Positions 45,125 to 60,206 of a stretch of DNA of 64,000 nt are shown here, piece by piece. The notes under the pieces were generated by a model. It did not search any database, had not been told where the DNA came from, and was given only the letters and a program-made list of their open reading frames with translations. Positions within the stretch are counted from its first letter, which is position 1, and each line of letters begins with the position of its first letter. Where the stretch lies: contig CAWCTR010000030.1 in assembly GCA_963798485.1 (NCBI GenBank), positions 32,001 through 96,000 on the forward strand, in the 5' to 3' direction. The translations under genes were made by a program, and so were the position numbers. This DNA comes from an uncultured delta proteobacterium. Its GTDB lineage: Bacteria; Desulfobacterota; Desulfomonilia; UBA1062.

Positions 45125-46198
45125 ATGGAACAGGATATATTCTTCATGCACCAGGCCGTTGAGCTTGCCCGGCAGGCCATAGGCAGGACCGCCCCCAATC
45201 CCAGTGTCGGTGCGCTGGTCGTGAAGGACGGCCAAGTTGTAGGCAGGGGCTTCCATCCCAAGGCGGGCAAACCCCATGCCGAGGTCTACGCATTAGAAGA
45301 AGCGGGCAATAGCGCCCGGGGCGGGGCGCTCTATGTGACCTTGGAGCCCTGCAACCATTATGGAAAGACGCCGCCTTGCACAGGGGCTATCATAAAATCA
45401 GGCGTCTCCCGTGTCATAGTGGGGACCCTTGACCCGAACCCCATTGTAGCGGGTAAAGGGATAGAGCTGCTCAAGGATGCAGGTATCGTGGTGGATGTGG
45501 GGGTATGCGCGGAAGAATGCAAAGACCTCATCGCGTGGTATGCCTTTTGGCTCGTCAGCGGCCGGCCGTATATCATCCTGAAGGCCGCCATTACCCTGGA
45601 TGGTCGTGTCGCCACCGCAACAGGGGATTCCCGGTGGATCAGCTCGGAGGAATCCAGGCATCATGTGCATGAGCTGAGGAACCTTGTGGATGGACTCATT
45701 GTGGGCATCGGCACGGTGCTTAAGGACGACCCGCTGCTTACCTGCCGCATCGAGGGAGGCCGGGACCCCATGCGGATCATCCTGGACCCCCAATTCGATA
45801 TCCCGGATGGTGCGAAGTGCCTGGGCCATGGCTCACTCGTGTTTACCGCCAAACCGCCCTATGCCAGAGAGGAAATCAATGAGCAGGGCACGGAAACCGT
45901 GCAGATGGAGGCAGACCCTTCCGGCCTGCTCCCCTGGGCATCCGTGCTTGAACATCTTGGCAAGATGGGCCTCCATTGTGTTATGGTGGAGGGCGGCAGC
46001 GGGGTTTACTCAAGTCTGCTCAGGAGCGGACTGGTGGACAAGCTGCTCTTCTTCATCGCACCCAAGATCCTTGGCGGGGGCTTGCCATTGGTAGATTGGG
46101 GCTCTCCTGAGCGGATTGCGGATTCCTTGAAGGTCGTGATATCAAAGGTTGACCTTCTGGGCGGGGATATCCTCGTGGAAGGTATACTGGGGGAGTAA
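45125..46198 (+). CDS. ribD: Riboflavin biosynthesis deaminase/reductase RibD
   Basis: PNPSVG; HAE; LEPCNHYGKTPPC; VEGG. Confidence 0.95.
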   Translation: MEQDIFFMHQAVELARQAIGRTAPNPSVGALVVKDGQVVGRGFHPKAGKPHAEVYALEEAGNSARGGALYVTLEPCNHYGKTPPCTGAIIKSGVSRVIVGTLDPNPIVAGKGIELLKDAGIVVDVGVCAEECKDLIAWYAFWLVSGRPYIILKAAITLDGRVATATGDSRWISSEESRHHVHELRNLVDGLIVGIGTVLKDDPLLTCRIEGGRDPMRIILDPQFDIPDGAKCLGHGSLVFTAKPPYAREEINEQGTETVQMEADPSGLLPWASVLEHLGKMGLHCVMVEGGSGVYSSLLRSGLVDKLLFFIAPKILGGGLPLVDWGSPERIADSLKVVISKVDLLGGDILVEGILGE

Positions 46199-46199
46199 T

Positions 46200-46844
46200 A
46201 TGTTCACCGGGATCATCGAGTCGGTAGGGAAGATTCTGTCCAAGGAGACTCATGGGCAAGGGGTCGTGCTCAAGATAGATACGGGGCTTGATCTGTCAGG
46301 CGATGCTATTGGTGAGAGCGTTGCAGTGGACGGGGTGTGCCTTACCATTACAAAGATGCAAGGCAGTGTCTTTTATGCACATGCATCTGCCGAGACCATC
46401 ACGCGCTCCACCCTGGGGGATATCAGGCCCGGCGCCGGCGTGAATATCGAACGGGCCCTTACCCTCTCATCGCGGCTCGGGGGGCATATTGTCCTCGGCC
46501 ATGTGGATACCGTGGGCAAGATCCTCCAGAAGGACCTTGCAGGCGAGTCAATGCGGATCAAGGTGGGCTTCGATCGGACATATGCAAAGTATGTAATAGA
46601 GAAGGGGTCAGTTGCCATAGACGGCGTTTCGCTCACTATTAACGATGTATATAAGGATGCATTGATTGTGAACATCATAGAGCACACTGCCCAATCCACT
46701 TCCTTGACACCCAAATCCCCGGGTGATAGGGTGAACCTCGAATTTGACGTGCTGGGTAAGTATGTGGAAAGCCTGCTGATTAAGGGTACGGGCACCAGCC
46801 TGAAAGACCTTCTCACAGAGCAGGGTTTTCTCAAAAGGGAGTAG
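46200..46844 (+). CDS. ribE: Riboflavin synthase (alpha chain)
   Basis: MFTGIIE; GVCLT; GGHIVLGHVD; VNLEFD. Confidence 0.95.
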   Translation: MFTGIIESVGKILSKETHGQGVVLKIDTGLDLSGDAIGESVAVDGVCLTITKMQGSVFYAHASAETITRSTLGDIRPGAGVNIERALTLSSRLGGHIVLGHVDTVGKILQKDLAGESMRIKVGFDRTYAKYVIEKGSVAIDGVSLTINDVYKDALIVNIIEHTAQSTSLTPKSPGDRVNLEFDVLGKYVESLLIKGTGTSLKDLLTEQGFLKRE

Positions 46845-46850
46845 ATTCAA

Positions 46851-48053
46851 ATGCCTACGTGTACCGTGGAAGAAGCCATCAAAGATCTGCTGCAGGGAAA
46901 GATGATCATCCTCGTGGATGACGAAGACCGGGAGAATGAGGGAGACCTCACCATGGCGGCCGAGTTTGTCACGGCGGACGCCATCAATTTCATGACAAAA
47001 TACGGACGTGGGCTGGTTTGCCTGGCCCTGGACTCTCACATCGCGGACAGGCTTGACCTGCAGCCCATGGTCAGGGACAACACGAGCAAATTCGGGACAG
47101 GATTCACTGTATCCATCGAGGCAAAAAAGGGTGTGACCACAGGCATTTCTGCCGCCGATAGGGCCGTGACCATCAGGACCGCCATTGCCCCGGATACCAA
47201 GGCACAAGACCTGGCAAGGCCGGGTCATATATTTCCCTTGCGGGCCAAGTCGGGCGGAACCCTTGTCCGCACCGGACAGACCGAGGGCTCGGTGGACCTG
47301 TGCAGGATGGCAGGGCTCAGGTCCGGCGCTGTCATCTGCGAGATCATGAACGATGACGGTTCCATGGCCCGCAGACCCCAGCTTGAGGAATTTGCGGCTA
47401 CACATGGTTTAAAGATTTGCACCATCGCCGATATCATCGCCTACCGCATCAGGAATGAGATCCTGGTGCGCGAGGTAGTCCGCGCCAAGCTCCCGACGGA
47501 ATTCGGCGTCTTCGAGCTTGTGGGGTTTGACAATGACATAGACGACAAGGAACATGTAGCCCTTGTCAAGGGGGATATAAACCCGGACGAGCCTGTGTTG
47601 GTCCGTGTGCACTCCGAGTGCCTCACCGGAGACATGTTTCATTCCGTGCGTTGCGACTGCGGCGACCAGCTCCACCGGGCCATGGAGATGATCGAGGAAG
47701 AAGGCAAGGGCGTCATCGTGTATATGCGGCAGGAAGGCCGCGGCATCGGTCTTATCAACAAGCTCAAGGCCTACCACCTGCAGGACAAGGGCAGGGACAC
47801 GGTGGAGGCCAACATAGAACTGGGTTTCGCCCCGGATTTGAGAGACTACGGCATCGGGGCGCAGATCCTCGTATACCTGGGTGTGCGCAAGATGAAACTC
47901 ATGACCAATAACCCCAAGAAGATCATCGGGCTCGAGGGCTATGGCCTTGAGATCGTCGAGCGGATTGCAATCGAGATCCCGCCCACGAAGGAAAACAAGA
48001 GGTATTTGAAGACCAAGAAGGATAAGATGGGACACATTCTGGAGGTGGTATAG
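46851..48053 (+). CDS. ribBA: Bifunctional DHBP synthase / GTP cyclohydrolase II
   Basis: [10 protein letters not shown]; RPGHIFPL; [10 protein letters not shown]; RCDCG; QEGRGIG. Confidence 0.96.
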
Positions 48054-48518
<465 letters not shown>

Positions 48519-48526
48519 CATCATCC

Positions 48527-48943
48527 ATGAAGCAAAGGACCCGGGCGCGAGAGGTAGCCCTGCAGTATCTCTACCAGATCGATATCACCAGCAGCCATAC
48601 CGAAAAGACCCTTGCGGACTTCTTCAAACACTTTGTACAGGACAAGGACAAGGAACTCGTCCCCTACGCAAAGGAATTGGCTGAAGGGGTATGCGAGTAT
48701 CTGCCCCAGATCGATTCCCTCATTGAGAAGGCCTCACAGAATTGGAAGGTGAGCCGCATGTCCGCCACGGACCGGAACATCCTGCGTATCGCCGCCTATG
48801 AGATGGCGTATAGAAAAGACGTCCCCTACAAGGTGGCCATCAACGAGGCAATCGAGATAGCCAAGCGCTTCGGTTCGTCGCGCTTCCCCTCCTTTGCAAA
48901 CGGTGTGCTGGACAAGATATGGAACGAGATATCTGCCGAATAA
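48527..48943 (+). CDS. nusB: Transcription antitermination factor NusB
   Basis: RTRAREVALQYLY; DRNILR; VAINEAIEIAK; FANGVLD. Confidence 0.95.
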   Translation: MKQRTRAREVALQYLYQIDITSSHTEKTLADFFKHFVQDKDKELVPYAKELAEGVCEYLPQIDSLIEKASQNWKVSRMSATDRNILRIAAYEMAYRKDVPYKVAINEAIEIAKRFGSSRFPSFANGVLDKIWNEISAE

Positions 48944-49663: not shown

Positions 49664-51087
49664 TAGCCTGACTCCAGGATCTTCTTAACCTCAGGGGCCA
49701 TGGTGAACTCGGCCTCTTTGATCTCTCCATCCTTCAGATAGAAATGCACACCGGATTTGGTGCCGGTGATTGTCATGCTTGTCATGCCGATGTTGATATC
49801 CGTCTGATCGTAGAGCGCACCCTCGATGTAGATGTTTCCCTGGTGGGTCTTGTGGATCTTTTCTACAATCTCGATGATTTTTGCATTCTGCTCTTTGAGT
49901 ATCCTACGAAGTGTCTCCATGCCGTCAAGGATCTTGTTATACAGGGCTTCCTGCTGCCGGCTCAGTTCGCTTGTGGCCTTCAATACCCTTAATTTCGCCA
50001 GGGAAGACTGGAATCTGATAAATTCCTGGGTCCTTTCAAGGACCTCCTCCTTCATCCGCTTCTGCTCACGGTGAAGGACCGGGCTGCGCCCGATACTGAC
50101 CACTGTCTTTTCATCGGCAGTCTCCTGGCCGACAGTGTGGCAGTAGACGCAGGTGTCGGAGGATACCTGGCTCGTTGTGATGAACCCGTTCGGGCTTTTA
50201 ATGATCAACGGACCAAGGGCAGAGACCAGGCTGTTACGGATATAGCCCTCAACCACAATCTCTTTGTCTGATATCACATGGGCATCCTGGATGAACTTGG
50301 CATGGATCATGCCTTTTGCGATTATCATGGCCTCTTCCTGGCCCATAATGCCGCCGGCTATTTTGATATTTCCTCCGGCCTCCAGTATTACCTTACCCAC
50401 CGTAGAGGCGATTACGATATCTTCCCCGGCGTGGATCTCATAGCCGTCACCAACCTCTCCCTGGACTACGACGGAACCGTTGAACCGGATGTTGCCTACA
50501 GACGCATCCACATCCTGAACCACATAGGATGGTTCCACATGCACGGCGTTTTCCAGCCACATCACCATTCCGTCAATGGCGGCAAATATCTGGTTCCTGT
50601 CGGCAGAGTAGGTCACGTTCTTTGCATCGGGAAGTTTCGCAGTTACACCCGGTTTACCAGGGATCTCCTTACCGTTCACCGTCATGCCGGGTGTACCGGT
50701 CTGTGGATTGACAAGTTCGCACAGGGGGTCACCCTTTTTCACGTTCTGGATAAGATGCAGGTCTTTCAGGTTCACCTTGCCGGAGGCGTCCTCTTTGATG
50801 ATAGCCTTTGTGCGGTTCGTGTCGAAGTGAAATTTGATAGAACCGTCTTTTCCCTGTTGAGGTTCCTGTCCCCTGGCAATGATGACCCACTGGTCTATGG
50901 TCTTATCCTTGACGATCTGATCGATCGCCTCGGGTATAAGGCCAAAGGTGATCCCCTCATTATTGATGGCCGCAACAAGGTCATCAACGGTGAGTCCGGA
51001 TACTTCCGTCCCTGTCGGGACGATCTTTATGGAAGCGATCAGGCCTCCCTCGGTGAGGTTGAATTCGACGGAATAATCCTTATCCAT
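49663..51087 (-). CDS. FapA/DUF342 family protein
   Basis: ARGQEPQQGKDG; GTPGMTVNG; DVDASVGNIRFNGSVVVQG beta-helix; C-terminal coiled coil. Confidence 0.85.
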   Translation of the reverse strand: MDKDYSVEFNLTEGGLIASIKIVPTGTEVSGLTVDDLVAAINNEGITFGLIPEAIDQIVKDKTIDQWVIIARGQEPQQGKDGSIKFHFDTNRTKAIIKEDASGKVNLKDLHLIQNVKKGDPLCELVNPQTGTPGMTVNGKEIPGKPGVTAKLPDAKNVTYSADRNQIFAAIDGMVMWLENAVHVEPSYVVQDVDASVGNIRFNGSVVVQGEVGDGYEIHAGEDIVIASTVGKVILEAGGNIKIAGGIMGQEEAMIIAKGMIHAKFIQDAHVISDKEIVVEGYIRNSLVSALGPLIIKSPNGFITTSQVSSDTCVYCHTVGQETADEKTVVSIGRSPVLHREQKRMKEEVLERTQEFIRFQSSLAKLRVLKATSELSRQQEALYNKILDGMETLRRILKEQNAKIIEIVEKIHKTHQGNIYIEGALYDQTDINIGMTSMTITGTKSGVHFYLKDGEIKEAEFTMAPEVKKILESG

Positions 51088-51210
51088 TAATGATGAATTC
51101 GGCCTTTTATCCTTAAAACTTGAAAAATACAGTTCCTCTTTTTTCTTGACTGGCAGGCATGCGTCCCGTACTTGAAATGAGGGATATACACTGCAACGAT
51201 GAGGTGTAAG

Positions 51211-51870
51211 ATGAATGTCCGCGATATCGATGCCCTTGCCATCAAGGGGTTCCTTGATACAAAGGAGGGCAAGGCGCTTTATGGGCTCGCCCTTGGTGCA
51301 AGCTCACGGGGGCCTGTGCTCGAGATCGGGGGTTACTGCGGGAAATCGACCCTCTATCTGGGCCTTGCATGCAAGAAAAGGGGCGGCATCCTGTACTCAA
51401 TCGACCATCACAGAGGCTCAGAGGAGCAGCAGCCGGGCCAGGAGTTTTTTGACCCCGAGCTCTTCGACGGCAGCGAAGGGAAGATAGACACCTTCAGGTT
51501 CTTTCGCAAGGCCATCGAGATCTCAGGTCTGTCGGATACGGTGGTGCCCATGGTGACCACCTCGGCTGTGGCGGCGCGCATGTGGTCCACACCCCTTTCC
51601 ATGGTCTTTATCGATGGCTCTCACACCTATCCGGGGGCCTTCTCGGATTATGTCTCGTGGTCTCCCCTTCTGATGTGCGGTGGCATCCTGGCCATCCACG
51701 ATATCTTTGACGACCCGGCCGCCGGCGGCCAGGCGCCGCATTATATCTACAAACTTGCGCTGTCTTCAGGTTTGTATGAGGAACTGCCCATGGTCAAGAC
51801 CCTTGGGGTGCTGAAGAGGCGCGGCCATGCAGATATACCCAAGGAGCTCTTTTCAAAACGCGATTGGTAG
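51211..51870 (+). CDS. Class I SAM methyltransferase (Methyltransf_24), MeT1-like methylmannoside 1-O-methyltransferase
   Basis: KGFL...EG.ALY; EIGGYCGKST; DHHRGSEEQQPG; FIDGSH; HDIF.DP..GGQAP, as recalled for mycobacterial MeT1. Confidence 0.8.
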   Translation: MNVRDIDALAIKGFLDTKEGKALYGLALGASSRGPVLEIGGYCGKSTLYLGLACKKRGGILYSIDHHRGSEEQQPGQEFFDPELFDGSEGKIDTFRFFRKAIEISGLSDTVVPMVTTSAVAARMWSTPLSMVFIDGSHTYPGAFSDYVSWSPLLMCGGILAIHDIFDDPAAGGQAPHYIYKLALSSGLYEELPMVKTLGVLKRRGHADIPKELFSKRDW

Positions 51871-53445
51871 GGTGTCCGTTTCCTTGTTGTGGGTCCAGTA
51901 ATAGCGGTATGATCCGCTCATGAGCTCGGCCTTGATATAGCCTGCGGCAAAGTAGCCCGTAAGCACCCTGGAGGTAAAAGACCTGTCCGTACCGGTCTTC
52001 TTTGCAACAATATCCGCCAGGAGCTCTATGGGGTGCGAGCCTTCCGCGTTCCTGCAGGGGCTTTCCTCGATAAGGTCTTCGGAGAGGATTCTATAGACGA
52101 GTTTCAGCTTGCGGTTGCCCTCAATAAGGAGATACTCGTGGTCGGTGCATATGCCGTCCTTATGGCGCTGTACCATCCCTTCCCAGACTTCATCGTTGCC
52201 CCTGTCATATTGTGCCACAAAGGCCGTCATCTCTTCAGGGCTCAATTGTGAAGTCTTCACTATAGGTGAGTTGGCATCGTAGCGGCTCCAGTCGTCGGTG
52301 AGTATCTCGATATCATAGTTTCCGAGCTCTTCACGGACCGTGGTGCCCGGGAAGGGCGAGAAGAAGTGGTAGCCATAGGCGATATCCAACTCAAGGGCGA
52401 AACGCTGTGTCTGCTGCAGGGTCTCCTTTGTCTCGCCGGGGAGTCCCACCATGAAGGAGGCGTGCGGGAGGATGTCGGCCTCTTTGCAGCATTGCACGGC
52501 CTTTCGGGCCTGCTCCAAGGTGATGCCCTTGCGGATCCTCTTGAGCATCTCAGGGTTGCCCGACTCAATGCCGAAGCTTATGCAATCGCAACCGACCTCC
52601 CGCATGGTCTTGAGTGTCTCCATGTCCACGGTGTTGACCCTGGCGAATGCGCTCCAGCCGAAGGTTACGCCCCTGCGCCTTATCTCGTCGCAGAGCTCTT
52701 TGACCCGGGCCTTGTCGACCGTGAACAGGTCATCGGCGACATTGATCCGGGTGAACCCCATGGCAAGGAGCTGCTCGATCTCATCCACCACCAGTTTGGG
52801 GTTTCTGAAGCGGCCCTTGAAGCCGACCATGCGCCTGCCAAGGCAGAAGATGCACCTGTTGGGACAGCCCCTGCTCGTAATGATGCTCACCGGGTATCCC
52901 AGTGCCTGATAGCGGGATATGGGCAGCAGATGCCTGGCAGGCATGGGTAGGCTGTCGAGGTCACCGATCAGCTCCCGGGTTTCGGTGATAACGATCTCCG
53001 TACCATCCCTGAAGGCGATGCCCTTGATACCATGCCATGCCTTTTTATCATCCAGGACCGCTATAAGCTCCATCAAGGTTTGCTCTCCTTCACCCTTGAC
53101 GATGAGGTCAAGCTCGGGGCAGGCCTTGAACGAACCCTGGATCTCAAAGGAGACATGAGGTCCGCCCATCATGGTGATGATCCCGGGGCGAAGCCTTTTG
53201 GCGTCCCTGATTATACGCTCGGCCTGGTGGTGATTCATGGTGACCGAGCTTGCTCCCACCACATCGGGCTTGAACGCCTCAAGTATCTTTGAAAGCTTTT
53301 CGGGTGAATACTTGCTTACAATAAAGTCGAAGATGCGCACGGTTGCGCCTGCTGCCTCGCAGGCCGCTGCTGCATAAGTAAGGCCTAAGGGCGGGGAGGG
53401 GGCCTCTTCCAATGGATAGGGTGTGCCGATGAGTGCGATTCTCAT
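51853..53445 (-). CDS. Cobalamin-dependent radical SAM protein
   Basis: PPLGLTY; GGPHVS; GEGE; SRGCPNRCIFC; FGIESG; GLPGET. Confidence 0.88.
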   Translation of the reverse strand: MRIALIGTPYPLEEAPSPPLGLTYAAAACEAAGATVRIFDFIVSKYSPEKLSKILEAFKPDVVGASSVTMNHHQAERIIRDAKRLRPGIITMMGGPHVSFEIQGSFKACPELDLIVKGEGEQTLMELIAVLDDKKAWHGIKGIAFRDGTEIVITETRELIGDLDSLPMPARHLLPISRYQALGYPVSIITSRGCPNRCIFCLGRRMVGFKGRFRNPKLVVDEIEQLLAMGFTRINVADDLFTVDKARVKELCDEIRRRGVTFGWSAFARVNTVDMETLKTMREVGCDCISFGIESGNPEMLKRIRKGITLEQARKAVQCCKEADILPHASFMVGLPGETKETLQQTQRFALELDIAYGYHFFSPFPGTTVREELGNYDIEILTDDWSRYDANSPIVKTSQLSPEEMTAFVAQYDRGNDEVWEGMVQRHKDGICTDHEYLLIEGNRKLKLVYRILSEDLIEESPCRNAEGSHPIELLADIVAKKTGTDRSFTSRVLTGYFAAGYIKAELMSGSYRYYWTHNKETDTLPIAF

Positions 53446-53454
53446 GGATGTCCT

Positions 53455-54177
53455 TTAGTTGTGTTTTCCCGGAAATAACAGGGACCTTACCCAGTGCAAA
53501 AGGGTATTGCCCTGGAGAAGGTCCTTGTCGATAATGACGAAGTCTTTGGCGAGCTTCTTGGGGTCTGCGTACCATTCGCCCCGAGCCCTCATGGGCTCTT
53601 TCGGGTCGAGCCTTTTTATTACCTTTGCCGGGTTGCCAGCGGCAATGACATTGGCAGGGATATCCCGTGTGACCACGGAGCCTGCGCCGATAATGCTGTT
53701 TTCGCCGATAGTTACCCCTTTGCAGACAATGGAGCTGTCGCCCAGCCAGACATTGTCGCCTATGACGATTCCGCCTGTGGCTCCGATATAGTCTGCGCGG
53801 TCGTAGATGCCGTGCCAGTCGGAGTCGGTGATGTAGACGTTGCTGGCCATCATGCAGCTGTCGCCCAAGGTGATGCCGGTGGCCGCACTCATCCGCACAC
53901 CGGGACAGATGAGGCTGTACTTGCCGATGCTGATGAACCCGTCACCTTTTTCCCTGCCCCATACGGTAAGCCGCACCCGGCGGTCCGGGGTGGAAATCAC
54001 GGTGGCGAAGTCGCCTATGTCGACGGGCCAGCCGAAGACCTGAACATACCACGGCTTCATGAAGGCGCAGCCCTTACCCAGGTGCTTGAACTGGGGCCTG
54101 AGGAAGTGTTCCACGTACCACTTGCGGAAATTGAGGTCGAGCCTCTTGAGGTAATATGGCCGGTAATCCTTTCGCAA
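53455..54177 (-). CDS. Hexapeptide-repeat (LbH) O-acyltransferase
   Basis: ITDSDWH; IGDNVWLG; GVTIGENSIIGAGSVV; AGNPA; TTG start. Confidence 0.88.
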   Translation of the reverse strand: MRKDYRPYYLKRLDLNFRKWYVEHFLRPQFKHLGKGCAFMKPWYVQVFGWPVDIGDFATVISTPDRRVRLTVWGREKGDGFISIGKYSLICPGVRMSAATGITLGDSCMMASNVYITDSDWHGIYDRADYIGATGGIVIGDNVWLGDSSIVCKGVTIGENSIIGAGSVVTRDIPANVIAAGNPAKVIKRLDPKEPMRARGEWYADPKKLAKDFVIIDKDLLQGNTLLHWVRSLLFPGKHN

Positions 54178-54181
54178 GGTT

Positions 54182-55315
54182 CTATGCCCTCATGTCAAAA
54201 GCGTCCGAATAGAACGCCTTCTTGATGCTGAAGATGGGATGGTGCTTTTTGAGGAAGCGGTACATGTGGGATTTGGCGCCCTCTCCTGCGGCCCAGAAAG
54301 AGTGGTTAAAGAGCTGGGAGGCCGGTGTGATGTGGTAGATGGCGTCCGTGGCCATCATCACGGCCGAGTTTGTCCAGGTGAGCTTATCTTCAGGCCAGAT
54401 GACCATGTCCGGGAAGGTGAAGCCGCACCAGAATGTGCCGTTCGAGTGTTTCTTGTTTTTGATCCAGCTCAGGACCGCCCCGGCCTTTTCGAGCTCGCCC
54501 ATCGCGGCCAACGTCAGGATGAGCTCGGAGGTCTCGGCAACGGTCACCCACGGGTTGTCGGAAACACAGCGTGCGCCGAGCCCTTCCACCATGAACTTGT
54601 TCCAGGACTTGTCGATTCGCTTCTTTGCCTCGCCCCCGGTAACAGCGCCGCAGAGTACGGGATAAAACCAGTCCATGGAAAAGCGCGCCTTGGTACGGTC
54701 GAAGAGGTGGGGACGGTAGCGTAGCGCATCGCCCAATCTCTGCAGCGCCGATTGCCAAGCAGGCCTGCTCTCGCCTAAGAGCAGGGCGAGGACGAGCGCG
54801 CACTTGAGGCTCATGAAGATGGAGCTGCAGCCGGTGAGGAGCGCCGTCGGGTCTTTGATCCCCAGAAAGTTTCTGGCCCAGTAGATCTCGCCGCTAGGCG
54901 CCTGGAGGTCCACGGCATAATCGATCCCGGCACAGATCGTGGGCCAGATGTATTCGAGGAACGGTCTGTCCTGGGTGATGAGGTAGTGGTGGAACACACC
55001 CACTGCTATGTATGACGACATATTGGATTCTTTGGTAAGGTCTTCGGGTATGCCGTTTCTATAAGAGGAATGCCAGCTGCCGTCTTCGAGCTGAATGGAT
55101 GCAAGCCATTCAAAGGCCTTACGGGCCTCTTCGTAGTAGCCGCCGATGGTAAGCCCGATGGCTGCCTCCACATGGTCCCACGGGTCGGTCTTTCCCCCTT
55201 CATGCCAGGGGATCTCGCCTGTCGGCCTCTGCTCTTCGGCAATGGATGAGGCCAGGGTCTCGATATCGATGGGCAGTGCCGGCCTTGATAGGCAACGGGC
55301 AGGGTCATGTTCCAT
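54182..55315 (-). CDS. (alpha/alpha)6-barrel protein, MmpH-like methylmannan hydrolase (family often annotated as prenyltransferase)
   Basis: GEIPW...TDPWDHVEAA; ALLTGCSSI; RFSMDWFYPVL; PWVTVAETSEL; TWT; start after AAAGGTGG. Confidence 0.75.
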   Translation of the reverse strand: MEHDPARCLSRPALPIDIETLASSIAEEQRPTGEIPWHEGGKTDPWDHVEAAIGLTIGGYYEEARKAFEWLASIQLEDGSWHSSYRNGIPEDLTKESNMSSYIAVGVFHHYLITQDRPFLEYIWPTICAGIDYAVDLQAPSGEIYWARNFLGIKDPTALLTGCSSIFMSLKCALVLALLLGESRPAWQSALQRLGDALRYRPHLFDRTKARFSMDWFYPVLCGAVTGGEAKKRIDKSWNKFMVEGLGARCVSDNPWVTVAETSELILTLAAMGELEKAGAVLSWIKNKKHSNGTFWCGFTFPDMVIWPEDKLTWTNSAVMMATDAIYHITPASQLFNHSFWAAGEGAKSHMYRFLKKHHPIFSIKKAFYSDAFDMRA

Positions 55316-56030
55316 AGGAACCACCTTTCTTCAAATAGAGTACAATGCTCTTGGCAATGAGAGGATTCAAGAGCCTGTCCAAGACCCTTGTCAGCAGCGG
55401 CTTCTTCATGATGTCCCAGACAAGGAACTTGTGGTAGAGCTTCACGGGCAAGGCATTGTCATTTTTATGCCCCGCCATGCACTTGATCCACCAGTAGGGG
55501 CTGTGCAGGGCATGTGCCCAGCCCGCCTCAACGCATGTAGCCCCTGCTCTCTGTAAAAGGCCGATGAGCTCATTTTTGCGGTAGATCCTTATATGGCCGC
55601 CCTCTTCATGGTGATAGGCCTCCGAAAGGGCCCAGCATATACGCTCGGGCAGATACCTTGGTACGCTCACCACCAGGGATTTCCCGGGTTTGAGTACGCG
55701 GATGATCTCTTTCATTGCCTTTGTATGGTCGGGGATGTGTTCGAGGACCTCAGAGCAGATCACGATATCGAAGGAGGCGTCTGTGAACGGGAGCCTGGTG
55801 ACATCGCTCACCATAACAAGCGCCGCCCCGCCGCCGTCTTCGTGCTCGTGCCGCATGATCTTCGTGGTGTTGTGGGCCTTGAGCGCATCGTGTTTTTTCA
55901 GGTCGATCCCCACCACGCTCACCCCTTTGGCGCGGAAGGCCTCACTCAGGTGGCGTCCGCCTCCACAGCCCGCATCGAGGACCTTTGTCCCGGGCATGAG
56001 GTCGAGCTTATTGAAGTCAACGGTGAGCAA
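55305..56030 (-). CDS. Class I SAM methyltransferase, OrfD-like putative mannan 3-O-methyltransferase
   Basis: (M)LTVDF; LDAGCGGGRH; SEVLEHI; PERICWALSEAYH; GGHIRIY; HALHSPYWW; TTG start at 56030 after GGAGG. Confidence 0.8.
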   Translation of the reverse strand: MLTVDFNKLDLMPGTKVLDAGCGGGRHLSEAFRAKGVSVVGIDLKKHDALKAHNTTKIMRHEHEDGGGAALVMVSDVTRLPFTDASFDIVICSEVLEHIPDHTKAMKEIIRVLKPGKSLVVSVPRYLPERICWALSEAYHHEEGGHIRIYRKNELIGLLQRAGATCVEAGWAHALHSPYWWIKCMAGHKNDNALPVKLYHKFLVWDIMKKPLLTRVLDRLLNPLIAKSIVLYLKKGGSYGT

Positions 56031-57312
56031 TGATAGCCTCCCGGTAGACCTCCACCACCTGCTTGGCGGTATTGAGCCAGGTAAAGTTCTTTCTTGCCCG
56101 GTCGTATCCGGCCTCGGCAAGGCGTGTGCGTTTGCCCGGGTCGTCCAGGAGATCAATGATGGCAGCCTCAAGGGCCTTGGCGTCGCCCGGAGGGACCAGC
56201 ACGCCTGCATTGCCTACCACCTCGGGCAAGGCGCCTCCAGTAGTGCTGATGACCGGCACCTTACAGGCCATGGCCTCACCGGCCGGCAGCCCGAAGCCCT
56301 CATAGATGGAGGGGACTACGGCCATGGTAGTCCTGGCATAGTACTGGGCGAACTCGGAGTCATCGATGCGGCCGGTGAAGGTGATGTAGTCGTGTGCATT
56401 GAGGCTCTTTACCAGCTTGTCGATGACGCCGTCCTTCTTTGGGGTTCCGATGACCGTGAGGTGCACGTCTCGCTTCTTTCTTATCATGGCTATGGCCTCG
56501 ATGAGAAAGCGCAGGCCCTTGAGCGGCGTGTCGGCGCTGTTGGTGACCATGATTTGGTTGTCGAGTCTTTTCACCCCGGCCAGGGTATGGAAGATGTCCG
56601 TATTGATGCCGTTGGCCACCACGCGGAACCGGTCATTGGGAATGGAGAATGCCCGGCTGATATCTGTTTTGGATGCCTCGGATACGGTAATGATATGGGA
56701 AAGTCTCCGGGAGACTCTTCCCTGCATGCTCAGGAAAGAATACCACCTGCGCACCTTCCATTTGCGCCAGAAGACCTTCTCTGATGCAATCTCCACATCG
56801 CGGTCCACGGTGATGGGGTGGTGGATAGTGGCGACAGTAGGGATGCCAAGGTTCTTGATTCCCAGTATGCCATAGGCCAGGCACTGGTTGTCATGCACGA
56901 CGTCGTAACGATGACGGTTTTCCCGCATGAAGTTGAAATAGCGCATGGAGTTCGTAAAGGGTTCCGGGAAACCGCCGCTGGAAACGCCGAGCCATTCGAG
57001 TATGTTGATGGGCGATCTCAGCTCTCTCAGGCTTGGGAGGCGGAAGAGGTCGTCAGGATTGTAGAGGTCGAGGCTCGGCAATGTATGGAGCGGGATATCC
57101 TCATCGATTATCGGATAGGGGGGGCCTGAGACGACCTCCACCATGTGGCCGAGATCTTTCAGCGCGCGGCTCAGCCTTTTGATGTACACCCCCTGACCGC
57201 CGCTGGTGGGTTTGCCGCGGTAGGTATAGAGGCAGATCCTCAGAGGCGTATCCTTGGTCCGCCGGCGTGTCCCTGGGGAGAAACCCTCTTGGGTTGCGGT
57301 TATCGATGACAT
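56017..57312 (-). CDS. GT4 glycosyltransferase, ManT-like alpha-1,4-mannosyltransferase
   Basis: YRGKPTSGGQGVY; GFPEP; VHDNQCL; TIHHPIT; SADTPLKG; YEGFGLPAGEAMAC; start uncertain (57312 or 57354). Confidence 0.82.
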   Translation of the reverse strand: MSSITATQEGFSPGTRRRTKDTPLRICLYTYRGKPTSGGQGVYIKRLSRALKDLGHMVEVVSGPPYPIIDEDIPLHTLPSLDLYNPDDLFRLPSLRELRSPINILEWLGVSSGGFPEPFTNSMRYFNFMRENRHRYDVVHDNQCLAYGILGIKNLGIPTVATIHHPITVDRDVEIASEKVFWRKWKVRRWYSFLSMQGRVSRRLSHIITVSEASKTDISRAFSIPNDRFRVVANGINTDIFHTLAGVKRLDNQIMVTNSADTPLKGLRFLIEAIAMIRKKRDVHLTVIGTPKKDGVIDKLVKSLNAHDYITFTGRIDDSEFAQYYARTTMAVVPSIYEGFGLPAGEAMACKVPVISTTGGALPEVVGNAGVLVPPGDAKALEAAIIDLLDDPGKRTRLAEAGYDRARKNFTWLNTAKQVVEVYREAIIAHR

Positions 57313-57512
57313 GGCACCAATACATCCTTTGGGAAAAAGTATGCCCGAACACACCTATGCATGCAATTCATGAGCAACACAGCATACTAGCAACTCTGCG
57401 CTGTCAAAGCAAGGAAATTTCTGATCATTGTCACCCATAGAAACAAGCCTTCCAGAGACGAGTGCCTCCATAGCTTAAGGGTTTTACTCCATCCGGCCGA
57501 TCAAGTGAACAT

Positions 57513-57719
57513 ATGGACATCTCTACATCGCTCCTCTTAGGCGTGTTGTTCGGATCAATCGGTATGGGTTATATCGTCTATGGCAAGAAACAACGCAAAG
57601 GCATGGCATTGTTTTCAGGGATCTCCCTGTGTATCTTTCCCTATTGTGTATCCAATATCTTTTTGTTTGTCCTTATCGGTCTGGTGCTCATGGCGTTGCC
57701 GTTCTTCATACGGTACTGA
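57513..57719 (+). CDS. Small hydrophobic membrane protein of unknown function
   Basis: 68 aa with TM segments; LFGSIGMGYIVYGKKQ...FPY motif. Confidence 0.65.
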   Translation: MDISTSLLLGVLFGSIGMGYIVYGKKQRKGMALFSGISLCIFPYCVSNIFLFVLIGLVLMALPFFIRY

Positions 57720-57735
57720 GGTTCAGCTGCGATGT

Positions 57736-57858
57736 GTTGGGTTTCGTCCCTCAACCCAACCTACGTCTGAGGTTCAATTCAGTAAGGGGACAGTATAAGA
57801 TTTTCCTATGTAGGTTGGGTTGAGCAAAGCGAAACCCAACCTATAAAACCCAACCTAT
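57736..57858. repeat. Pair of GTAG-type REP palindromes in inverted orientation
   Basis: GTAGGTTGGGTTGAG...CGAAACCCAAC on the minus strand (57736-57764) and the plus strand (57810-57840); lies between convergent genes. Confidence 0.75.
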
Positions 57859-57869
57859 ATATTGCTGCC

Positions 57870-58109
57870 TTACCTACCGGTGAAGAACCGTTCAATGAGC
57901 ATCTGCCTGAGCTTGTCCACAACCTCAGGGCTTACGCAGCATGGCTGTTTGATTTTCTGAGAGAGTTCTATGGTGAGTGAGTAGGTCTTGAAGCAGATCT
58001 TGCATTTTTCACAGACCCCGAATTTGCTGTTCATCTCATCGATGATGTCCTGGGAGAGGGTGTTATCCAAGTAATCCTGGAATAAGGAGGAACAGACCAT
58101 GCATTTCAT
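57870..58109 (-). CDS. Cys-rich soluble anti-sigma factor (zf-HC2-like)
   Basis: MKCMVC...DYLD...CEKC; ATGA overlap with the ECF sigma gene. Confidence 0.75.
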   Translation of the reverse strand: MKCMVCSSLFQDYLDNTLSQDIIDEMNSKFGVCEKCKICFKTYSLTIELSQKIKQPCCVSPEVVDKLRQMLIERFFTGR

Positions 58110-58717
58110 ATGCCTTCTCCTTCAGGTTGTGTATATTTCCTGAAATAGCCGGCCAGGACATCCCTCAGGATAAGCCGTCCCCGATGGAGCCTGGATTTGA
58201 CGGCAGGGACGCTCACGCCTAAGGACTGTGCGATCTCTTCGTTGGAGAACCCCTCCACATCTTTCATGATGACCACGGTCCTCATGGCCTCGGGCAGCGA
58301 GTCGATGGAGCCCTGGAGGATGGTCCTGCTTTCCTCGGACAGGAGAATATCGTCCGGCAGGGTCGACCAGTCGTACTCGTAATCCTGAGACGGCTCCTGG
58401 TCGATCTCCTCGATGGTGGTCTGCTCGGTAAACTTCTTCTCTTTTCGAAGGAACCCGTATGAGGCATTTGTGGCTACACGGTAGAGCCAGGTGGAAAAGT
58501 ATGCGTCATTGGTCAGCGTATTGATCTTGGCGATAACGGTGAGGAAGACCTCCTGCATGATCTCTTCGGCTGCAGAGGCATCACGGGTGAGATGGTATGC
58601 GAGATTATACACCTTGTTCGAATATCTCCTCACTATCTCCTCCATGGCGGCTGCATTGCCATGCTTGATGTCCTTCACCAAGATTGCATCAGAAATTATT
58701 CCCTTTTTCTTACCCAT
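58106..58717 (-). CDS. ECF RNA polymerase sigma factor
   Basis: AEEIMQEVF; FSTWLYRVATN; EEIAQSLG...VKSRLHRGR. Confidence 0.93.
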   Translation of the reverse strand: MGKKKGIISDAILVKDIKHGNAAAMEEIVRRYSNKVYNLAYHLTRDASAAEEIMQEVFLTVIAKINTLTNDAYFSTWLYRVATNASYGFLRKEKKFTEQTTIEEIDQEPSQDYEYDWSTLPDDILLSEESRTILQGSIDSLPEAMRTVVIMKDVEGFSNEEIAQSLGVSVPAVKSRLHRGRLILRDVLAGYFRKYTQPEGEGI

Positions 58718-58730
58718 TTAGATACCTGCT

Positions 58731-60206
58731 TTATCCTGATGGATTCAAATCATTCCATGTGAGAATGAGATTGCGCGCAGCACTTACCTCATCCACGCGC
58801 GTTACGGGCATGCCGCGGGGGCCTTCTTGCAAGGTTCCCGGCGAGTTTGCCGCCCTTATGGCCACGGATTCCATGGCCTGGGCAAACCTTTTCAATTCGC
58901 TCAAAGGCTCACTCTCGGTCGGCTCTATCATGATTGCCCCCGGCACCACCAGCGGAAAGTAAACAGTGGGCGGGTGGAAGCCGTATTCCATGAGCGCCTT
59001 GGCCATGTCGATGGTGGTGGCGCCATATGATTTCTGTTTCTTGTCGGAAAGTACGAACTCGTGCATCGTAGGCGTTGTATAGGGCAGATCAAATATCGCC
59101 TTGAGCCTGCTTTTAAGGTAGTTGGCATTCAGGCATGCCCTTATGGATGCCTCCTTGAGGCCTGAGGCGCCAAGGCTCAGGCAAAAGACATAGGCCTTGA
59201 GAAGGACCGAGGTATTCCCCATGCTTGAGTGGACCATTCCGATGCTTTCAGGGTTATCGGCCTGCAGGCCCAGTTTCCCTGAAGTATCGCGCACGATAGA
59301 GGGTATGGGAAGGAAGCCGGCCAGCTCTTCCTTCACCAGCACAGGGCCGCTCCCGGGGCCTCCCCCGCCGTGGGGGGCGCCGAAGGTCTTGTGAAGGTTT
59401 ATGTGCATGCAGTCCACACCGACATCACCCGGCCTGACTATCCCCATGATGGCGTTCAGGTTCGCCCCGTCCATGTAGAGGTACGATCCGTTCTCGTGAA
59501 GGAGTCGGGCTATCTCCATGATCTCTTTTTCAAATATCCCTAAGGTGTTGGGGTTGGTGATCATGAGGGCCGCAATGTCATCCGTCAGGAGGCCCTTGAG
59601 GTCGAAGGCCCGCAGAAAGCCGTCAGGGCCTGATGCGATGTTCACGGTCTCGAACCCGGCGATGGTGCAGGATGCAGGGTTGGTGCCGTGGGCCGTATCC
59701 GGGATGAGCACCTTGGTGCGCTTAGAGCCCTTCTTCTTTATGGCCTCCTTGATGACAAGCATGCCGGTAAGCTCGCCGTGGGCGCCTGCGGCGGGCCATA
59801 AACAACAATCATCCATGCCGCAGATGTCTTCAAGGATGCGTTTCAGCCCATATAACCATTCAAGCACACCCTCGGTTGCCGCCTTGTCTGCCGGATGGAT
59901 GGCCGCGATGGCCCGCGCGATCTCCTCGCTTATTTTCGGGTTGTATTTCATGGTGCACGAGCCCAGGGGATACATGCCCTGGTCGATTCCGAAGTTGAGC
60001 CGTGAGAGCCTGGTAAAGTGGCGCACCGTCTCCACCTCCGAGACCTCGGGCAACCCGGGCAGTTCAGGGTTTACATGGATATCCTTGCATAATGAGCCGT
60101 CAAAGGGCCGAGGGGTTGCCAGGCCGTTCCTGCCTTGGCCCGAGAGTTCTGCAAGCAGGGGCTCTGGGATGACTGGGAAGCTTGTCACAGCAGGTGTGTC
60201 AGGCAT
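58731..60206 (-). CDS. gcvPB: Glycine dehydrogenase (decarboxylating) subunit 2
   Basis: YPLGSCTMKYNP; AHGTNPAS; NLHKTFGAPHGGGGPG; IEPTESE. Confidence 0.95.
   Translation of the reverse strand: MPDTPAVTSFPVIPEPLLAELSGQGRNGLATPRPFDGSLCKDIHVNPELPGLPEVSEVETVRHFTRLSRLNFGIDQGMYPLGSCTMKYNPKISEEIARAIAAIHPADKAATEGVLEWLYGLKRILEDICGMDDCCLWPAAGAHGELTGMLVIKEAIKKKGSKRTKVLIPDTAHGTNPASCTIAGFETVNIASGPDGFLRAFDLKGLLTDDIAALMITNPNTLGIFEKEIMEIARLLHENGSYLYMDGANLNAIMGIVRPGDVGVDCMHINLHKTFGAPHGGGGPGSGPVLVKEELAGFLPIPSIVRDTSGKLGLQADNPESIGMVHSSMGNTSVLLKAYVFCLSLGASGLKEASIRACLNANYLKSRLKAIFDLPYTTPTMHEFVLSDKKQKSYGATTIDMAKALMEYGFHPPTVYFPLVVPGAIMIEPTESEPLSELKRFAQAMESVAIRAANSPGTLQEGPRGMPVTRVDEVSAARNLILTWNDLNPSG

Follow-up and report, generated by a model that had tools for sequence, protein, structure and literature searches.

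A putative methylmannose polysaccharide gene cluster, extended by acetyltransferase and B12-radical SAM genes, in an uncultured Desulfomonilia bacterium

Methylmannose polysaccharide (MMP) is regarded as a special feature of mycobacteria and a small number of other actinobacteria, in which it is thought to buffer fatty-acyl-CoA and to aid growth in the cold. We analysed a window of 64,000 nucleotides from an uncultured delta proteobacterium of the Desulfomonilia (assembly GCA_963798485.1, contig CAWCTR010000030.1, positions 32,001 to 96,000 of the forward strand; window coordinates are used below), which contains a cluster with counterparts of four mycobacterial MMP genes and two further genes, for a hexapeptide-repeat (LbH) acetyltransferase and for a B12-binding radical S-adenosylmethionine (SAM) enzyme. 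In the mycobacterium M. hassiacum the MMP genes lie in the order manT-pmeT3-mmpH-meT1 (MHAS_04402-04405), and crystal structures are available for MmpH (7QSJ) and ManT (7QSG) of this species (Maranha et al. 2023, PMC9883506). An acetylated MMP has been described for Streptomyces griseus (Harris and Gray 1977, cited in PMC9883506). The cluster in the window consists of the following features:

51199..51870, plus strand: MeT1-like Methyltransf_24 protein, putative 1-O-methyltransferase, 223 amino acids, convergent with the radical SAM gene
51853..53445, minus strand: class B radical SAM enzyme with B12-binding domain, 530 amino acids
53455..54177, minus strand: LbH protein of the hexapeptide sugar O-acetyltransferase type, 240 amino acids, TTG start
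54182..55315, minus strand: MmpH-like (alpha/alpha)6-barrel protein, putative endo-alpha-(1->4)-mannosidase, 377 amino acids from the ATG at 55315
55305..56030, minus strand: pMeT3-like SAM-dependent methyltransferase, 242 amino acids from the TTG at 56030
56017..57312, minus strand: ManT-like GT4 protein, putative alpha-(1->4)-mannosyltransferase, 431 amino acids
57313..57470, minus strand: conserved non-coding leader/promoter region 5' of ManT

From sequence and analogy we propose, with a probability of about 0.7, that these genes encode a complete mycobacterial-type MMP pathway that is extended by two tailoring enzymes. The supposedly actinobacterial polymer would probably exist here in a further modified form. 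A first-pass annotation, made from the letters and a list of open reading frames (ORFs), had described a tightly packed five-gene minus-strand operon that meets a convergent Methyltransf_24 gene with an overlap of 18 base pairs, and had assigned the domains. The ORF list bears out both the operon and the overlap (51853-51870), and the domain assignments agree with Pfam: GT4 (Glyco_transf_4, E 1e-23; Glycos_transf_1, E 1e-33), SAM-dependent methyltransferase (Methyltransf_23/11, E 7e-24), LbH (Hexapep, E 9e-14), B12-binding (PF02310, 82 bits at a cut-off of 32, E 4e-23) together with Radical_SAM (PF04055, 92 bits, E 4e-26), and Methyltransf_24 (E 8e-19). For the barrel protein the Pfam scan gave no family above the cut-off. 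The motifs by which the first-pass annotation had matched four genes to the mycobacterial proteins are present in the translations of the GT4 protein (GGQGVY, HDNQ, TIHHPIT), the methyltransferase (LTVDF, HALHSPYWW), the barrel protein (DPWDHVE, SMDWFYP) and the Methyltransf_24 protein (YCGKST, DHHRGSEE, GGQAP).

The core proteins were searched against all PDB sequences, and the residues named in PMC9883506 were read onto the HMMER alignments, with a chain numbering offset of +1 for 7QSJ and +26 for 7QSG. The MmpH-like protein had a sole match, 7QSJ, 'Methylmannose polysaccharide hydrolase (MmpH)' (E 1.7e-102, residues 21-340). The GT4 protein matched 7QSG with 350 bits (E 1.6e-103, residues 22-427), and the runner-up chain scored 97 bits. 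The sole match of the MeT1-like protein was to 6G7D/6G80/6H40 (E 2.3e-52, residues 7-212, nearly full length). These entries are labelled only 'Methyltransferase domain protein' in the PDB search, and we take them to be M. hassiacum MeT1, for which no confirmation was found in the literature. The PDB search gave no specific solved relative for the pMeT3-like methyltransferase. Ten of the 11 MmpH site residues named in PMC9883506 are identical here (Asp47=D47, Trp49=W49, Asp50=D50, Asn101=N101, Thr163=T164, Met215=M217, Tyr219=Y221, Glu262=E264, Glu265=E267, Trp315=W317); they include the catalytic residues, the acid Asp47/Asp50 and the base Glu262, which are likewise invariant in 12 relatives. 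Nine of the ten named donor-binding and catalytic residues of ManT are identical as well (Gly15=G38, His142=H164, Lys240=K265, Asp293=D318, Glu313=E338, Gly314=G339, Phe315=F340, Leu317=L342, Glu321=E346), and the sole change, Leu291=I316, concerns a main-chain contact. In M. hassiacum, alanine variants of MmpH Glu262, Asp47 and Asp50 and of ManT Glu321 and Lys240 lost all or most activity, and ManT Asp293 has been proposed to contact the guanine base of GDP-mannose (PMC9883506).

The gene order manT-pmeT3-mmpH-meT1 is also kept, with two genes inserted before meT1. A protein search of a plasmid collection yielded one actinobacterial record, an 11.85 Mb replicon of Nonomuraea gerenzanensis, with the order ManT, methyltransferase, MmpH, DUF1702 gene and convergent MeT1-like gene. 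Its proteins are 47% (ManT), 49% (pMeT3-like), 41% (MmpH) and 47% (MeT1-like) identical to those of the window, and the alignment of the pMeT3-like protein with the product of the gene between ManT and MmpH extends over 232 residues (E 3e-69). At the level of sequence, these comparisons demonstrate the orthology of the four core proteins and the conservation of their catalytic residues. The view of the first-pass annotation, in which four genes correspond to those for mycobacterial MMP, therefore stands, because M. hassiacum structures are the best or nearly the only matches and both residues and order are kept. The window's own genome contains one match to MmpH, one to the Methyltransf_24 family, and a GDP-mannose pyrophosphorylase-like gene (E 9e-83). 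As to the Nonomuraea locus (L112; NZ_LT559118.1, 10953999-10968955), the replicon is filed as a plasmid and is almost unannotated. Its DUF1702 gene occupies the slot between MmpH and MeT1, which is the place of the LbH and radical SAM genes in the window, and a gene for a GDP-mannose 4,6-dehydratase is found just upstream, on the opposite strand.

The linkage of the two additional genes to the core was analysed in two ways. A scan of one genome per species for MmpH relatives gave at least 598 stretches, and the six window proteins were run by tblastn over the best 80 of these, to which all counts of loci refer. The record titles place 53 loci in a Desulfobacterota-type group and 27 in the Gammaproteobacteria. 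All six genes in the window order ManT-MeT3-MmpH-LbH-rSAM-<MeT1 (rSAM, radical SAM gene; <, convergent) were found in 18 loci, and five genes, without MeT1, in seven; these two arrangements come from metagenome-assembled genomes (MAGs) of Desulfomonilia, Syntrophales, Smithella and Syntrophobacterales. ManT-MeT3-MmpH-<MeT1 only was found in 21 loci, almost all of them gammaproteobacterial, an MmpH-LbH pair only in 17, and the remaining 17 show reduced or mixed patterns, many of them truncated at contig ends. In 50 of the 80 loci mmpH is immediately followed by the LbH gene. The radical SAM gene occurs in 30 loci, and 57 have a pMeT3-like methyltransferase gene in the same position as in the window. 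The Desulfobacterota-type group holds all 30 radical SAM loci and 47 of the 50 LbH loci, and the three gammaproteobacterial LbH loci are without a radical SAM gene.

Co-occurrence was followed in 251 genomes, sampled evenly across the phylum. MmpH (E <=1e-50) is encoded in 27 of them, and ManT (at least 50% identity) in the same 27 plus one further genome, G154. LbH (E <=1e-50) was found in 26 genomes, 24 of which also have MmpH. The radical SAM matches form two clear groups: one of high identity (at least 53%, E <=1e-184) in 23 genomes, of which 21 also have MmpH, and a second one at 38-49% identity. The two exceptions in the first group seem to be assembly effects, because contig ends truncate the cluster: in G154 ManT, the methyltransferase and the initial 69 residues of MmpH lie at a contig start, and in G204, which has no MmpH match, an LbH gene adjoins the radical SAM gene at a contig end. 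The LbH genes without MmpH are attributed to contig ends or to a 66%-complete genome. Related genomes are not independent; therefore, counts are given and no statistical test was applied. Synteny and co-occurrence together demonstrate, from gene content, that the LbH and radical SAM genes are linked to the MMP core, and the earlier proposal that they extend the cluster is thereby supported.

The physical linkage is looser in some lineages. Five genomes were searched as a whole, four with only the MmpH-LbH pair (including the cultured Desulfatitalea alkaliphila) and one of Desulfarculus. All five encode ManT (55-58% identical), MeT1 (58-61%) and a radical SAM relative (43-60%), and in the four pair-only Desulfobacterales genomes these genes lie away from the pair. 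In these four genomes (G001-G004; loci L046, L015, L049 and L014) the MmpH-LbH pair is often near lon, ManT and MeT1 share a second locus, and the radical SAM gene stands alone at a third one with variable neighbours. No conserved partner of these unlinked radical SAM genes was found (an acyl-CoA synthetase plus SDR once; AdhE, AOR/GntR and TPR genes elsewhere). The two additional genes can also occur one without the other. In G022 (one contig, 99% complete) and in the Desulfarculus genome MmpH has an adjacent radical SAM gene, 45% identical, and no LbH was found in either at E <=1e-15. In turn, G181, G211 and G241 have MmpH-LbH without a high-identity radical SAM gene. This separability speaks for the methylmannan as the substrate of the radical enzyme, and against an acyl group added by the LbH enzyme, with the caveat that the 45%-identical copies may differ in function.

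The LbH protein can be filed at the superfamily level only, because every NCBIfam equivalog (best: WbbJ, LacA, Maa and WcaF) scored below its cut-off. Its best PDB matches are maltose and galactoside O-acetyltransferases (E 6e-20). Residues 100-191 align to maltose O-acetyltransferases, with H122 on the His of the HP(I) motif, presumably the catalytic one. The first-pass annotation had seen an acyltransferase and an acylated product. The LbH transferase stood, and its kind was revised from long-chain acyl transfer to sugar O-acetylation of the Maa/LacA/WbbJ type. Since the nearest relatives are sugar O-acetyltransferases, acetylation fits better than long-chain acylation, and from these families we infer acetyl-CoA as the putative donor and a sugar hydroxyl as the acceptor.

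Drawing on M. hassiacum and M. smegmatis, we infer each chemical step and the product by analogy. ManT would elongate alpha-(1->4)-mannooligosaccharide primers with GDP-mannose as donor, the pMeT3-like enzyme would 3-O-methylate the mannoses, and MeT1 would cap the reducing end by 1-O-methylation. MmpH would cut finished chains into primers for new chains, i.e., by partially conservative replication. The LbH enzyme would O-acetylate some of the mannose hydroxyls from acetyl-CoA, as in the acetylated polymer of S. griseus, and the B12-radical SAM enzyme would add one more modification, the target of which would be the methylmannan itself and not the acetyl group. The favoured step is a cobalamin-dependent methylation of an unactivated carbon (a ring carbon, C-6 or the O-methyl carbon), which would make the polymer more hydrophobic. 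By analogy, the product would most likely be a cytoplasmic, acetylated 3-O-methylmannose oligomer with a further radical modification. Because the six proteins look cytoplasmic, it would stay inside the cell as an oligosaccharide of some 10-15 sugar units, could bind fatty-acyl chains, and might serve as a fatty-acyl binder or acyl-CoA chaperone. A more specific version, in which an acetylated 3-O-methylmannan is further alkylated (O-methyl to O-ethyl, much as CysS acts on an aromatic methyl ether, or C-methylated mannose) and would represent a new class of intracellular polymethylated polysaccharides from anaerobic Desulfobacterota, is a tentative suggestion that has a real chance of being right.

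The chemistry of the radical SAM enzyme is the point at which a different reading has to be taken seriously. Its class is established, and its sequence and predicted fold do not discriminate between a methylase and a non-methylase. In an AlphaFold (AF2) model based on an alignment of 31 orthologues, from which five loci with ORFs extending far upstream were omitted, the protein is predicted with a mean confidence score (pLDDT) of 90.1 to consist of an N-terminal B12-binding Rossmann domain, a radical SAM barrel with the CxxxCxxC motif and a C-terminal cap. The motif (C194-x3-C198-x2-C201) is invariant in the 31 orthologues. None of the 33 NCBIfam matches comes near its cut-off (e.g., BchE with 229 versus 481 bits). 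Instead of methylating, the enzyme might catalyse another radical reaction on the glycan of an otherwise MMP-type pathway, such as a diol deoxygenation or dehydration (as AprD4), an epimerisation, a ring contraction of the kind proposed for HpnJ, or an anaerobic oxidation like that of BchE. We consider this doubtful, yet far from negligible. It is favoured by the NCBIfam scores, in which the non-methylating families BchE (229 bits) and HpnJ (192) lead, followed by ApyD (168) and the methylases PhpK (164) and HpnR (122), and by AprD4 as the best match in the PDB sequence search (E 2.3e-23). The nearest folds in a Foldseek search, at 16-22% identity, were TsrM, AprD4, MgmA, OxsB, TokK and CysS; the predicted fold thus resembles OxsB and the diol dehydratase AprD4 no less than it resembles methylases. 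Both the scores and the fold weigh against the favoured methylation, for which only the commonest precedent can be claimed. On the other side, the methylases TsrM, MgmA, TokK and CysS are equally close folds, and the score of the B12-binding Pfam domain is well above its cut-off. Methylation of carbon or phosphorus is the reaction of most cobalamin-binding radical SAM enzymes characterised to date, and AprD4 is not known to use cobalamin. Precedents for the methylation of a methyl ether are CysS, which lengthens an O-methyl group into larger alkyl ethers, and TokK, which assembles alkyl chains step by step. We know of no cobalamin radical SAM enzyme with an oligosaccharide substrate. The sister-clade radical SAM genes (38-44% identical) have varying neighbours (housekeeping genes, an M16 peptidase gene), which give no hint of the chemistry.

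Two further explanations concern the product as a whole, and both appear very improbable. The radical SAM gene, the acetyltransferase gene or both could be bystanders of a plain MMP pathway as in mycobacteria. The Desulfobacterales radical SAM orthologues, which lie among unrelated and variable neighbours, and the 21 loci with the four core genes only would agree with this. However, gaps of only 4 and 9 nucleotides couple the extra genes in the window, their order recurs in 25 loci from several taxonomic orders, and 21 of 23 radical SAM genomes and 24 of 26 LbH genomes contain MmpH, compared to 27 of 251 overall. Alternatively, the genes could direct the synthesis of a surface or envelope glycan or glycolipid, e.g., a capsule or a lipopolysaccharide decoration. 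Loci for surface polysaccharides typically encode GT4 proteins, methyltransferases and WbbJ/WcaF-like acetyltransferases, and an ECF sigma factor gene lies upstream. Against this stand the specific matches, which are to cytoplasmic MMP enzymes including the recycling hydrolase MmpH, and the gene content: no flippase, exporter, ABC exporter, polyprenyl-phosphate (lipid-carrier) transferase or polymerase was found in or next to the locus. In addition, no membrane segments are predicted in the six proteins: in a crude hydropathy scan no 19-residue window reached 1.6 except residues 166-184 of MmpH. A membrane location of MmpH was rejected, as this segment aligns to an inner, buried helix of the soluble crystal structure. 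All six proteins thus look cytoplasmic from their sequences, as the proposed extended MMP pathway would require.

Several other observations count against the proposed extended MMP pathway and have to be set beside the evidence in its favour. One named MmpH site residue differs, Phe102 being Met here. In mycobacteria pMeT3 is itself only a putative 3-O-methyltransferase (PMC9883506), and the assignment of the window protein is based on its position and its likeness to the Nonomuraea protein. The residue-level comparison covers MmpH and ManT. The product is predicted from the genes, and the co-occurrence counts are not phylogenetically independent. Furthermore, CobS (PF02654) was not found in the 97.5%-complete draft genome of the window, and cobalamin or other corrinoids may therefore have to be imported, although the failure to find a single family in a draft assembly is too little to decide on cobalamin synthesis. 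The same genome encodes at least five B12-binding radical SAM proteins. Lastly, a promoter scan gave three promoter-like sites versus 5.1 expected from shuffled sequences, none of them 5' of ManT.

The gene starts needed some revision. For the MeT1-like gene, the start noted earlier at 51211 is an in-frame ATG four codons downstream of 51199. The barrel protein had been listed with a GTG start (54182-55324), and the ATG at 55315 is the likelier start because the closest relatives have 377 amino acids. The methyltransferase had been listed as ORF 55305-56210, and its annotated ATG at 56210 would create an overlap of about 190 nucleotides with the GT4 gene. Judged from the sequence, the TTG at 56030 is most likely the start; it is preceded by GGGAGG at a distance of 6 nucleotides and leaves a 14-nucleotide overlap. 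Further along the minus strand, methyltransferase and MmpH genes overlap by 11 nucleotides, MmpH and LbH genes are separated by 4, and LbH and radical SAM genes by 9 nucleotides.

About 150 nucleotides directly 5' of the ManT start (57313-57470, minus strand) are kept in four Desulfomonilia loci, and a 1-nucleotide indel among these loci excludes a coding sequence. It holds a promoter-like TTGACA...TAGTAT and a candidate hairpin (RNAalifold -23.9 kcal/mol; four of 35 predicted pairs changed on both sides). An Rfam scan of 50500-58800 (E <=1) gave no match, riboswitches included. Terminator-like sites numbered 14, versus 6.7 +/- 3.2 expected, all of them on the plus strand and none usable for the minus-strand operon. 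The 790-nucleotide spacer between the sigma factor gene and ManT contains a very hydrophobic ORF of 68 amino acids (57513-57719, plus strand). Next to the sigma factor gene lies a Cys-rich ORF of 79 amino acids (57870-58109, minus strand; 4-nucleotide overlap at 58106-58109), which might be an anti-sigma factor fragment.

Some expression support comes from one sediment metatranscriptome run, which shared 5% of the sampled words with the cluster. Its contigs are 90-95% similar and fall on 29 of the 30 bins into which the cluster was divided, and single contigs cross the LbH/radical SAM and the methyltransferase/MmpH junctions. The degree of similarity indicates that they come from a relative of the organism, and the support is weak because such libraries may contain DNA. 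One joint with 26 letters on the shorter side was attributed to another organism.

The deltaproteobacterial host suggested by the first-pass annotation agrees with the nearest loci, which are from Desulfomonilia MAGs with 83-89% identical MmpH. The cluster is flanked by chromosomal housekeeping genes, namely a riboflavin operon with nusB, genes for a pentapeptide protein and FapA, the ECF sigma factor gene and glycine-cleavage genes, and FapA adjoins the cluster in four related loci, too. The riboflavin operon is an ordinary one (45125-48943, plus strand: ribD, riboflavin synthase, ribBA, lumazine synthase, then nusB), and the pentapeptide-repeat gene and fapA are on the opposite strand. A parallel cluster was observed in three other Desulfobacterota families (loci L113-L117; genomes G029, G106, G208, G247 and G178). 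It contains genes for a methyltransferase, a GT4 protein, a ManT-like GT4 protein (40-43% identical) and a MeT3-like methyltransferase (37-39%), and lacks MmpH, MeT1 and LbH. Of 14 sampled genomes with this cluster, 13 carry a sister-clade B12-radical SAM gene (38-44%) at another locus. The parallel cluster may represent a second, undescribed methylated-glycan system, and together with the sister radical SAM it suggests a wider undescribed family of such glycans.

The first-pass annotation knew of no such polymer outside Actinobacteria. A literature search agrees: among the papers examined, neither MMP nor its genes were described for organisms beyond the Actinobacteria, with the exception of an aside in a peer-review document, and none described MMP together with a radical SAM enzyme. 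The genes themselves, however, are very common beyond that phylum. For the MmpH family at least 3,732 sequence clusters are recorded, and genomes of at least about 600 species encode a member. The NCBI name for its members is 'phenyltransferase domain-containing protein', and one JGI record names a relative 'MMP endo-(1,4)-3-O-methyl-alpha-D-mannosidase'. The aside is found in the peer-review file of PMC9883506, where homologues 40-51% identical to M. hassiacum MmpH, with conserved site residues, are mentioned 'in some Proteobacteria' and are called outside the scope of the study.

If the proposal is correct, the whole pathway, with intact catalytic residues, is present in strict anaerobes (Desulfomonilia, Syntrophales and Desulfobacterales) and also in marine Gammaproteobacteria. 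Syntrophales and Desulfobacterales are degraders of fatty acids and hydrocarbons. The physiology of polymethylated polysaccharides would become testable outside pathogens, and cultured carriers exist, e.g., Desulfatitalea alkaliphila (strain M08but, with a 60% identical radical SAM relative) and several Halieaceae. Strains of Halioglobus, Seongchinamella and Pseudohalioglobus are among the carriers of the four core genes. The cluster also points to a B12-radical SAM tailoring enzyme whose substrate would be an oligosaccharide, and an alkylated methylmannan would, if true, be the first radical-SAM-tailored storage or chaperone glycan.

Compared with described systems, the closest one is the mycobacterial MMP cluster of M. 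hassiacum and M. smegmatis, which has the same four genes in the same order, with the same key residues and soluble-looking proteins (PMC9883506). In contrast to it, the host here is an anaerobic member of the Desulfomonilia, and LbH and radical SAM genes lie between mmpH and meT1. The MMP of S. griseus carries O-acetyl groups, and this is the product expected from an MMP core plus a Maa/LacA-type acetyltransferase. To our knowledge, no radical SAM step is known for the S. griseus polymer. Another intracellular, polymethylated polysaccharide, which bears short acyl groups and has been suggested to bind fatty acyl-CoA, is the mycobacterial 6-O-methylglucose lipopolysaccharide (MGLP); it differs in its glucose backbone and in its different, unrelated genes, none of which was noticed here, no search having been aimed at them. 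Marine Gammaproteobacteria (Halieaceae, Cellvibrionales) share the order ManT-MeT3-MmpH-<MeT1, with 45-58% identity to the window proteins. A radical SAM gene is present in none of their 27 loci and LbH in only three, and in both LbH loci that hold MeT1 (Microbulbifer aestuariivivens and Pseudomaricurvus hydrocarbonicus) the LbH gene lies beyond it. The radical SAM enzyme shares its predicted architecture with the methylases TsrM, MgmA, TokK and CysS, with OxsB and with the related AprD4. The solved cobalamin radical SAM enzymes act on a peptide, a carbapenem or an aromatic acid, whereas the putative substrate of the window enzyme is an oligosaccharide. What is new here, as judged from gene content, is the presence of the MMP pathway genes in an anaerobic phylum together with a conserved acetyltransferase gene and a conserved cobalamin radical SAM gene.

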